64,000 nucleotides of DNA from the sequence record OZ335961.1; one strand, given 5' to 3'. The notes under the pieces are model-generated. The model did no database searches, had not been told where the DNA came from, and saw only the letters and a list, made by a program, of their open reading frames with translations. Position 1 is the first letter of the stretch. Every line of letters begins with the position of its first letter. Positions 9,686-31,591 of the stretch are shown here, piece by piece. Source of the stretch: a phage. The position numbers and the translations under genes are program-made.

Positions 9686-10156
9686 TTAATCATGTTTCCA
9701 CACCCCATCGGTATTTGACCAAAGTCGCTGATTATCTGATCCTCGCCACAGCTTTTTGGTCGGAAGATTTTTCTCATACTTCCCATCAATAATAACATCA
9801 ACATATTTAAGCATTTCTAGTTGTTTAATATCTTCAAACTTATATCCTGTCCACAACCAAATGCTTTTATTGGGATAAAGATTTTTTACTGTTTGAACAA
9901 TGCAATGAACAACATCTCGGTTATCAGGATAGAGGGGGTCTCCTCCAGTTATAGTTAATCCTTCTATATAATCATTATTCAAACATTCAATTAATTGCTC
10001 TAGTGTTTCACCAGTGAATGGAATACCATTTCTAGCATTCCATGTTGATTTATTATAACACCCCTCGCATTTATGCAAACAACCTGTAACGAAAAGAACG
10101 ACCCTGCATCCAGGGCCATTCACAAAATCGCAAGGATAAAATCTATCATAATTCAT
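9686..10156 (-). CDS. nrdG: anaerobic ribonucleotide reductase activating protein (radical SAM)
   Basis: 156 aa; CxxxCxxC radical-SAM motif (CLHKCEGC); adjacent to nrdD. Confidence 0.85.
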   Translation of the reverse strand: MNYDRFYPCDFVNGPGCRVVLFVTGCLHKCEGCYNKSTWNARNGIPFTGETLEQLIECLNNDYIEGLTITGGDPLYPDNRDVVHCIVQTVKNLYPNKSIWLWTGYKFEDIKQLEMLKYVDVIIDGKYEKNLPTKKLWRGSDNQRLWSNTDGVWKHD

Positions 10157-29549: not shown

Positions 29550-29828
29550 TTATTCTTTAAATCTAATCAATTTATTCATAGACTTTGAAACTTCTGCACG
29601 GACCTCATGTAGGTTTTTAAGCTGTTCAAGACGTTGCTCATAGTAAGCAATTTCATCTTCTTCAAGACAGTCCTGTGAATCTTCTTTAAGATAACGTGCA
29701 TAGTCCTGGAAAGCTTTACGGACTACTTCTTGGAAGTCATCAAGACTTTGAATTTTCTTAGGAGCAACAGATACACGACGAGGGGCAGTATAATACTCAT
29801 AACCAAACCCTGCGCTTAATTGAGCCAT
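29550..29828 (-). CDS. hypothetical small protein; candidate Acb2-like cyclic-oligonucleotide sponge (assignment tentative)
   Basis: ~92 aa from [13 protein letters not shown]; position corresponds to T4 vs.3/vs.4. Confidence 0.45.
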
Positions 29829-30094
29829 TAGTATTTTTCCTCTGGTTGGAACACAGCACGACAAGCCCACATACTGGCTTCTTTGAGTTTCGTTTTAGCA
29901 ATAGTTAACTGATCGAGGCTTTCAGCATAATTCTTCGTGAATTCACAGTCTTCACAATTATCTAGTGCTTCCCAGAATTCATCATATAAAGCATCAAAGA
30001 TAAGTCCTAAACGAACTTCAGCATCTTTGATAGCATTCACTTTACTGATTTTATCGTCAGTATGTGGCTTATAACCTTTAATATCTTCAATCAT
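29828..30094 (-). CDS. hypothetical acidic protein (vs.4/vs.5 position)
   Basis: 88-aa ORF. Confidence 0.45.
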
Positions 30095-30308
30095 ATTCTA
30101 CTTCCTCACCAGTGCCCAAATCATATTCAACTAAACGAATAGGTTCATGAATGCCATATCCTTGAACAGAAATTTCTGTTGTAGGATAAATTCCATTAAT
30201 ATCACCCATGTTCCATGCTTCATTAAATTGCTGTTCGCCTGAATTACTAAACCATTCGGCGAAAGCATTTAACACATCTTCAGAACCTTCAATAATTATC
30301 TTTGCCAT
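30087..30308 (-). CDS. hypothetical acidic protein
   Basis: 73-aa ORF. Confidence 0.45.
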   Translation of the reverse strand: MAKIIIEGSEDVLNAFAEWFSNSGEQQFNEAWNMGDINGIYPTTEISVQGYGIHEPIRLVEYDLGTGEEVEYD

Positions 30309-30670
30309 TACAAGCTCTCAGTAAAGGTACGAGCAATAACGTCGCGTTGCTGTTCCGGAGTCAGAGAGTTAAAGCGAACTGCATATCCGGATACACGGAT
30401 GGTCAGCTGCGGATATTTTTCCGGATGCTTAACTGCATCTTCCAGAGTTTCACGACGCAGAACGTTAACGTTCAGGTGTTGACCACCTTCAATTTTAACT
30501 GTAGGTTGTGTTTCAATTTCAATTTCACGGGTGTGCAAACCGTAGAAAATTTCTGGGTCTACAAAAGAGTCCTCTTTAAAGGTTTTAGAAACAATAATTC
30601 GTGCTTGAATACCATCTTCAAAATAAATAGTACCTTTATGTGTGCCTTCAAGAATTTGATATGCTTTCAT
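30308..30670 (-). CDS. autonomous glycyl radical cofactor (GrcA/YfiD-like)
   Basis: 120 aa; C-terminal ~60 aa ([59 protein letters not shown]) near-identical to E. coli GrcA as recalled, including RVSGY glycyl radical motif. Confidence 0.7.
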
Positions 30671-30677
30671 ATAAACC

Positions 30678-31058
30678 TCAATTAGAAAATAAATTTATCC
30701 AAGATTGCTCTTTAATTAAAAATGGCTCAGAATCATATGCCATTAAACTTTGGGTGATTAGTCCTTTAAAAGGTCCATCAATAAATTCCATGGTAAAATA
30801 CGGAATTTTATTCATTAATCTTGCATTAGGAGCAGTACACAAAACTCTGCATCCTTTGAATACGCCTTTTTGTAATTTGTACTGCTTAGGATAAAATTCG
30901 CTCAAGACGTTATTATTTGCTAAAATTTCAAAATGATTCACCAATTTATTTTTAATAGTTTTTGGCGAAAAATAAAGATATTCGAAAAGTTGCGTATCTG
31001 TCATCATTGCATTCCAATTACGAAAAACTGCGGACGAGTAATACCACCAATGCAGCAT
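30678..31058 (-). CDS. hypothetical protein (start likely internal; overlaps next ORF)
   Basis: 126-aa track ORF overlapping upstream gene by 55 nt. Confidence 0.4.
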
Positions 31059-31591
31059 TTACTATTGCAGCAGTGTTGCACAGTTTCAATATGAATATCA
31101 TAAATTTTATCCATATCAGGAGATTTAACAGGCTCATCGATTATATACAAAATTCGAGAAAGCGATAAACCTCTGAACTTGCTACCTCTATTACCAACAA
31201 AACTACGGACAGAATCGGTAAATAAGCGGAATCGAATATCATCGCTAGAATAACGAGAAAATTCTTTTTTAATGTGGCCCGCAGAAATTTTAGCGTAAGC
31301 TGAAGTATTAGAAAGAACAATAACTGTTCCACCATCATATAACCAATTAGCGGCAAAATTAGTTACTGCAGTTGATTTACCAGATTGACGTCCACCATCT
31401 AGTCGAAGTGTGCAATACTGTTTGAGTAAGTCTTCAAATGGTGGGATATAATCGTTTTTACAAATTTCTTCTACTCTAGCATCAGAATGGTGTGTAAAAG
31501 CATTCATCAGGGATAGATAAGGACCAGTTAAAAATGTTCTCATTTTATTCTCTCTAAATTTGGGCCATTCCATGGCGCATGAATTATCCAT
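31004..31591 (-). CDS. P-loop-containing hypothetical protein (vs.8 position)
   Basis: 195 aa; Walker A-like GGRQSGKST. Confidence 0.5.
   Translation of the reverse strand: MDNSCAMEWPKFRENKMRTFLTGPYLSLMNAFTHHSDARVEEICKNDYIPPFEDLLKQYCTLRLDGGRQSGKSTAVTNFAANWLYDGGTVIVLSNTSAYAKISAGHIKKEFSRYSSDDIRFRLFTDSVRSFVGNRGSKFRGLSLSRILYIIDEPVKSPDMDKIYDIHIETVQHCCNSKCCIGGITRPQFFVIGMQ

Follow-up and report, generated by a model that had tools for sequence, protein, structure and literature searches.

A vs.6 (Y06I) homolog of a T4-type phage with an Escherichia-like glycyl radical domain, a probable spare part for pyruvate formate-lyase

The window analysed here is a stretch of 64,000 nucleotides from a phage (record OZ335961.1). 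Its minus strand carries an open reading frame for a GrcA-like protein of 120 residues, which starts with ATG, has a computed mass of 13,867 Da and contains no cysteine (Table 1). The GAGG Shine-Dalgarno sequence of this gene overlaps the TGA stop codon of the upstream vs.7 homolog, while its TAA stop codon overlaps the ATG start codon of vs.5 (TAATG). Since the genes are tightly packed and overlap at their stop and start signals, vs.6 is presumably co-transcribed with its neighbours. A scan for promoters and terminators at the vs.6 locus gave no excess over shuffled sequences. The antisense reading frame of 127 residues with a TTG start was treated as spurious, because the conserved frame is the one on the minus strand.

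There is an overlap of 55 nt between the listed reading frames of the neighbouring homologs of vs.7 and vs.8. As the PHROG match to vs.7 begins at residue 18 of the listed vs.7 frame, the true start of this gene is probably an internal ATG, yielding a protein of ~109 residues as in phage T4T. The vs.4 homolog, found two genes downstream of vs.6, features an Acb2/Tad1 hairpin domain; an Acb2-type protein at this position would presumably act as a cyclic-nucleotide sponge against CBASS defence.

Table 1 Features of the vs.6 locus and of the nrdD/nrdG genes in the 64,000-nt window
Feature	Position	Strand	Basis or remark
vs.6 / Y06I homolog, autonomous glycyl radical cofactor (GrcA-like)	30308-30670	-	120 aa, ORF list
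Putatively host-derived tract, 185 nt including stop codon, residues 61-120	30308-30492	-	glycyl radical domain
Phage-diverged 5' part, residues 1-60	30493-30670	-	remote homolog of GrcA N-terminus
Predicted beta-strand region, residues 1-50	30521-30670	-	AlphaFold2, four strands
R92-V93-S94-G95-Y96 codons, glycyl radical loop	30383-30397	-	read from sequence
Codon of the radical glycine G95	30386-30388	-	GrcA and PFL alignments
GAGG Shine-Dalgarno sequence	30676-30679	-	5 nt upstream of vs.6 ATG
Antisense ORF, 127 aa	30302-30685	+	TTG start, treated as spurious
vs.4 homolog	29828-30094	-	PF24729 Acb2/Tad1 hairpin domain, E = 1.3e-19
vs.7 homolog	30678-31058	-	listed ORF
vs.8 homolog	31004-31591	-	listed ORF
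nrdD, anaerobic class III ribonucleotide reductase (a glycyl radical enzyme), 605 aa	10153-11970	-	PF13597 1.8e-171, PF01228 1.2e-25
nrdG, radical-SAM activase of NrdD	9686-10156	-	PF13353 2.2e-48, PF04055 8.6e-7

The exact 120-residue sequence is present at NCBI as USW07342.1, named autonomous glycyl radical cofactor of Salmonella phage GRNsp7. The vs.6 protein of T4 is identical to the window protein in 118 of 120 positions, with both differences (T47A and T54P) in the N-terminal half, and a match to phrog_1209 (6.5e-63) covers residues 1-120. In T4T the counterpart is vs.6, flanked by vs.5 and vs.7 within the regB-denV interval, and the gene order in the window is alike. The vs.8-vs.7-vs.6-vs.5-vs.4 block conserved in T4-type phages is present, and the 5-kb neighbourhood of the gene shows an identity of 94-96.5% to T4-type genomes. 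We regard it as highly probable that the reading frame corresponds to vs.6 (Y06I) in a phage of T4 type (Tequatrovirus) and codes for a spare part of pyruvate formate-lyase (PFL). Y06I is, as we take it, the UniProt entry name of T4 vs.6; the equation of the two follows from this name, from the matching size and from vs.6 being the sole small Gly_radical protein at the locus. The computed masses of ~13.8-13.9 kDa are in line with the ~14 kDa published for the T4 Y06I spare part. Previously, vs.6 was listed among 11 ORFs of unknown function that are conserved in five T4-like genomes, and its Gly_radical domain was noted (Nolan et al. 2006, PMC1524935).

When the vs.6 gene was used as megablast query, 745 phage records were matched, and in 719 of these the match extends over 80% or more of the gene; nearly all matched phages are of T4 type, with Escherichia, Shigella, Yersinia, Salmonella and Klebsiella as hosts. 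By blastn, at least 1516 phage records contain homologs, including T5-like phages and jumbo phages of ~350 kb, and 2107 of the 8000 candidate proteins scored are homologous at E ≤ 1e-20. In several NCBI records, the 120-residue phage protein is assigned to Escherichia coli, Shigella sonnei or Salmonella enterica. The contigs of these bacteria-labelled records measure 165-169 kb, so that they probably represent genomes of T4-type phages that were deposited as part of bacterial assemblies. Another record, on a 410-bp contig, assigns a 60-residue partial sequence of the same protein to Enterococcus faecalis.

The original prediction described the C-terminal ~60 residues as nearly identical to E. 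coli GrcA, including the RVSGY motif. This wording is an understatement, as residues 61-120 are identical to GrcA 68-127 in 60 of 60 positions. Over the whole protein, BLASTP yielded 73 identities in 100 positions (E = 2e-52). The Pfam domain Gly_radical (PF01228) was found at residues 60-101 (E = 2e-18), and the NCBIfam model of GrcA (TIGR04365) matched residues 20-120 with 154.7 bits (E = 1.3e-45). This score is below the equivalog cutoff of the model of 170 bits because the N-terminal half is divergent; RefSeq still names the phage vs.6 orthologs GrcA despite the score.

Alignment to the C-terminus of PflB, proposed as a check together with the GrcA comparison, showed the expected relationship as well: residues 58-120 of vs.6 and 697-759 of PflB are identical in 49 of 63 positions (78%), again including RVSGY. 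Among PDB entries, the protein matches the NMR structure of YfiD (PDB 6owr, E = 4.6e-42) and, with the same residue ranges as in the PflB alignment, the PFL structure 1h16 (E = 4.6e-26). The tail of an AlphaFold2 model was superimposed by Foldseek on PFL (2pfl) with an rmsd of 0.8 Å over 43 columns. G95 of vs.6 corresponds to G102 of GrcA and G734 of PFL (numbering from PMC12338860). The stand-alone architecture is the same as that of E. coli GrcA/YfiD (P68066), which is slightly longer (127 instead of 120 residues). In PflB, in contrast, the domain is part of an enzyme of 759 residues, whereas vs.6 is a free-standing 14-kDa protein and lacks the catalytic residues Cys418/Cys419.

For the N-terminal half, it had been stated that it is unrelated to GrcA, and this statement has to be withdrawn. 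BLASTP of the N-terminal halves alone gave an E-value of 4e-6, and residues 22-60 of vs.6 share 33% identity with residues 28-67 of E. coli GrcA (39 aligned residues). Comparison of a profile of nine phage N-terminal halves with one of twelve host N-terminal halves yielded 96.4% in hhalign (E = 1.3e-9) over all 61 columns. Since the N-terminal halves match both by BLASTP and in the profile-profile comparison, the whole gene can be regarded as a grcA homolog, albeit with very uneven divergence. Identity of the N-terminal half between phage proteins and host GrcA ranges from 26 to 33%, and the phage half lacks the host motif NSFWLLD. Among phages, its dN/dS values range from 0.05 to 0.29, i.e. 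it is under purifying selection.

In the AlphaFold2 model, the four beta strands of residues 1-50 have a pLDDT of ~90, and residues 61-67 form a linker of low confidence. A Foldseek search with the N-terminal half of the model returned no significant structural match, just weak KOW-like ones. The predicted ordered beta domain differs from the N-terminus of E. coli YfiD, which has been described as disordered (PMC13450708). This could be a real difference between the two proteins or over-confidence of the model. The same 2026 review calls the role of the YfiD N-terminus "enigmatic", yet reports that it affects radical installation (PMC13450708). Because of this effect in YfiD, radical-installation kinetics or partner of vs.6 could differ from those of YfiD in view of the divergent N-terminal half. 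The phage N-terminal module, which is under purifying selection and predicted to be folded, may help to explain how the N-terminus of GrcA acts when the radical is installed.

The uneven divergence is far more pronounced in the DNA. The last 185 nt of the gene (gene nt 179-363) differ from E. coli grcA by three mismatches, all of which are synonymous (identity ~98.3-98.4%), and the tail has no non-synonymous change compared to E. coli. In each of 5426 complete E. coli genomes, this 185-nt tail matches the chromosomal grcA gene (98.4%, E = 3e-84). In the 5' part, identity to E. coli grcA is 49.6% over the alignable codons (residues 22-60). Blocks of 30 nt within the tail show identities of 100, 100, 100, 100, 97 and 93%, compared to 40-50% just upstream, and the homology to E. 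coli grcA DNA ends at the stop codon. Other than the E. coli gene, the phage gene lacks the DNA upstream and downstream of grcA and sits in a phage operon. The G + C content rises from 32.2% in the 5' part to 49.2% in the tail, with 35.0% for the whole window. GC3 rises from 18% to 42.4%, a value equal to that of the E. coli grcA tail.

Three gene copies were compared at single-base level and share the breakpoint, and the 185-nt E. coli-like tract is common to T4 vs.6 and the window gene. When phages were searched with E. coli grcA as query, 732 phage records were matched, and in all 40 of those listed the alignment begins at nt 200 of grcA. Of these 40 listed matches, none is at least 99% identical and none covers at least 80% of grcA; they diverge from E. 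coli grcA by 1.6-5% and include several T4 sequences. We found no description of this DNA mosaic in the accessible literature, and it is the one fresh detail beyond the known function of vs.6.

According to the account in PMC8683613, E. coli YfiD and T4 Y06I are spare parts of ~14 kDa on which the PFL activase installs a glycyl radical; the activated proteins form complexes with O2-cleaved PFL and restore its activity in vitro (Wagner et al. 2001, BBRC 285:456, via PMC8683613). The two proteins are the only validated spare parts (PMC8683613), and the account is repeated in a 2026 review (PMC13450708). The route of the radical from G102 of activated GrcA to Cys419 of PFL has been described as well (PMC12338860). 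According to the original prediction, the phage protein may be a spare part that restores either NrdD or host PFL after oxygen cleavage. The part concerning host PFL agrees with the function published for T4 Y06I, from which the window protein differs in 2 of 120 residues. Since the function is established for the T4 ortholog, the spare-part finding, like the vs.6 gene itself, is already known from the literature and from RefSeq annotation.

In the proposed mechanism, the C-terminal 60 residues of vs.6 would duplicate the PFL glycyl radical domain in stand-alone form, in which the host radical-SAM activase PflA would install the radical on G95 by hydrogen abstraction. The activated protein would dock on host PFL that has been cleaved by oxygen at G734, take the place of the cleaved C-terminus and supply the radical to Cys419, by which the conversion of pyruvate into acetyl-CoA plus formate would be restored. 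The expected activase (PflA) and the expected target (O2-cleaved PflB) are the same as for E. coli GrcA. For the window protein, we infer activation by PflA and rescue of PFL from its near-identity to the T4 ortholog and E. coli GrcA.

T4-type phages shut off host gene expression. Because of this shut-off, a phage-encoded spare part would keep PFL working during oxygen fluctuations; during micro-aerobic or anaerobic infection in the gut, the phage copy would keep host PFL running after the host can no longer express its own genes. Sustained PFL activity would provide ATP, acetyl-CoA and formate, of which formate would serve as reductant for phage NrdD. A search of the accessible literature for an in vivo phenotype or role of vs.6 returned none.

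As had been predicted, the same genome encodes NrdD and its activase NrdG, and Pfam places both on the minus strand of the window (Table 1). The C-terminus of the window NrdD reads CFTCG...CSICG...RRTCGYLG, with the radical loop following two CxxC pairs that are taken to be a zinc site. Class III ribonucleotide reductases, among them T4 NrdD, use formate as reductant (PMC4493059). The nrdD gene of the window is a single uninterrupted reading frame of 605 residues. A group I intron is carried by T4 nrdD (sunY), and the window phage appears to have an intron-less allele.

The host-like 3' half might be an artefact, either an assembly chimera or contamination with host DNA, or a recent pickup without function. 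A DNA identity of 98% to the host and a host-like G + C content do have the look of contamination. Nevertheless, among 732 independent phage records, each of the 40 matches listed has an identical junction, which excludes an artefact, and the listed matches are 1.6-5% diverged from E. coli instead of reaching 99% identity. In addition, the reading frame runs through the junction without interruption or frameshift in 13 of 13 phage copies translated, and substitutions in the tail are shared between phages. The shared junction, the divergence and the common substitutions refute the artefact reading, to which we give hardly any credence. Another view holds that vs.6 is a decoy that soaks up host PflA or blocks PFL and thereby redirects fermentation. 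It could draw on the N-terminal half, which is strongly diverged from host GrcA (33% identity) and forms an ordered beta domain in the AlphaFold2 model, unlike the disordered N-terminus of YfiD; in E. coli, this region influences radical installation (PMC13450708). We consider such a decoy very unlikely, as every residue of the tail is conserved, including the parts that contact PFL, which fits a working replacement, and the in vitro work on T4 Y06I, as related in PMC8683613, reports reconstitution of PFL and not inhibition.

Slightly more can be said for NrdD, the second target of the original prediction, although this reading is also unlikely. Here, vs.6 would be a spare radical domain for phage NrdD, or a substrate of NrdG, and would rescue the anaerobic ribonucleotide reductase after cleavage by oxygen. 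The presence of nrdD and nrdG in the same genome is in line with this, as is the homolog of Salmonella jumbo phage 7t3, which is flanked by nrdD and nrdG. Nolan et al. (2006, PMC1524935) suggested an involvement in nucleotide metabolism, and reviews regard it as an open possibility that glycyl radical enzymes besides PFL have spare parts (PMC8683613, PMC13450708). However, BLASTP detected no similarity between vs.6 and the window NrdD (E = 2.6), and as vs.6 shows no similarity to the C-terminus of NrdD either, a spare part for NrdD was rejected as the main function. NrdD features the CxxC pairs and the RRTCGYLG loop, while vs.6 is free of cysteine and its tail shares 78% identity with PflB 697-759 and 100% with GrcA. 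Moreover, vs.6 lies ~18 kb from nrdDG in T4-type genomes, and the co-occurrence is explained equally well by PFL supplying formate to NrdD.

Judged from co-occurrence and known biochemistry, this supply of formate by PFL is a plausible explanation for the association of grcA-like genes with nrdDG. The T5-like phage LmqsSP1 likewise has a grcA-like gene as well as both nrdD and nrdG. That the association recurs suggests that PFL repair, the supply of formate and phage dNTP synthesis are linked in the gut.

In a neighbour-joining tree built from 180-nt tails, the sequences from Tequatrovirus and Mosigvirus cluster with E. coli and another Escherichia species (99% bootstrap support), and their nucleotide identity to E. 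coli is 95.6-98.3%. Tails of other Enterobacteriaceae hosts show identities of 83-91% to the window tail, roughly tracking species relationships. Since host tails follow species relationships and the tract has host composition, the direction of transfer is read as host to phage. In this view, the 5' half is an old, AT-rich and diverged phage grcA. The 185 nt at the 3' end would stem from Escherichia grcA, either by replacement or by retention, and this most likely took place a single time, near the base of Tequatrovirus and Mosigvirus.

Some tail substitutions are common to T4, HX01 and the window, and dS within Tequatrovirus is the same in both halves (0.113 vs 0.121). Both observations fit one acquisition followed by ordinary divergence and exchange between phages, a scenario that rests on few sites. 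Between the window and HX01, dS amounts to 0.44 for the 5' part and 0.23 for the tail, and the synonymous counts show no significant difference (Fisher p = 0.32). A tail younger than the split of Tequatrovirus and Mosigvirus is favoured by total nucleotide differences (p = 0.015), but not by the synonymous counts (p = 0.32). Frequent ongoing gene conversion from E. coli was also considered and downgraded to one or few past events, because of the uniform start at nt 200, the lack of listed matches of at least 99% identity and the substitutions shared by T4 and HX01. The vs.6 gene offers a clean, datable case of a lytic phage gene in which a functional domain is nearly verbatim host DNA, joined in frame to an old phage half. 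Its mosaic is useful for studying host-to-phage recombination in T-even phages, which contain hmC.

GrcA-like genes are also found in Mosig-, Jiaoda-, Karam-, Slopek-, Pseudoteven- and Biquartavirus, in Tequintavirus (T5-like) and in jumbo phages of ~350 kb. Compared to vs.6, they have the same size (120-122 residues), the same architecture and the same two-part invariant core (10 + 19 letters), while origin and age of the tails as well as the genomic position differ. In Jiaodavirus (Klebsiella/Salmonella phages PSE-D1 and 15882-3-2; locus 481-660), the tail has a G + C content of 56-58% and a GC3 of 58-63%, compared to a GC3 of 25% in the 5' half. Where tails of the E. coli type read LEDAVKH, it has LLDAVEH, the residues of the Klebsiella/Salmonella type. 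Among 81 host species, the best match to this tail is Pseudocitrobacter with just 90.6%, and the support in the tree is weak (22%). No near-identical donor was found among these 81 host species, with K. pneumoniae being absent from the 80 host loci kept and unnamed among the 120 listed protein matches. By composition and residues, a second, independent host-derived tail in Jiaodavirus seems likely.

It is conceivable, and we put it forward tentatively, that host grcA DNA has overwritten the radical domain of GrcA more than once and in separate phage lineages, with an Escherichia-type tail in Tequatrovirus and Mosigvirus and a Klebsiella-type tail in Jiaodavirus. The spare part would thereby remain matched to the PFL system of the current host, while the phage would keep its own N-terminal module; the reason would be formate from PFL for NrdD. 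A short follow-up might be worthwhile only for the mosaic and the possible repeated matching to the host.

The tails of Karamvirus, T5-like phages and 7t3 have a phage-like GC3 of 8-33%. In Salmonella phage 7t3 (MK773491, a jumbo phage of ~349 kb), the grcA-like gene (locus 321-683) lies directly between the gene of the NrdD large subunit and nrdG. Because its GC3 is just 8%, the 7t3 tail appears fully adapted to phage composition. The T5-like Tequintavirus phages SE8 and ESCO30 carry a grcA-like gene for 122 residues among small ORFs of the tRNA/early region, and in ESCO30 a tRNA-Met gene is located ~280 nt upstream of it. The N-terminal half of the T5-like protein barely resembles that of the T4-type protein (29% identity).
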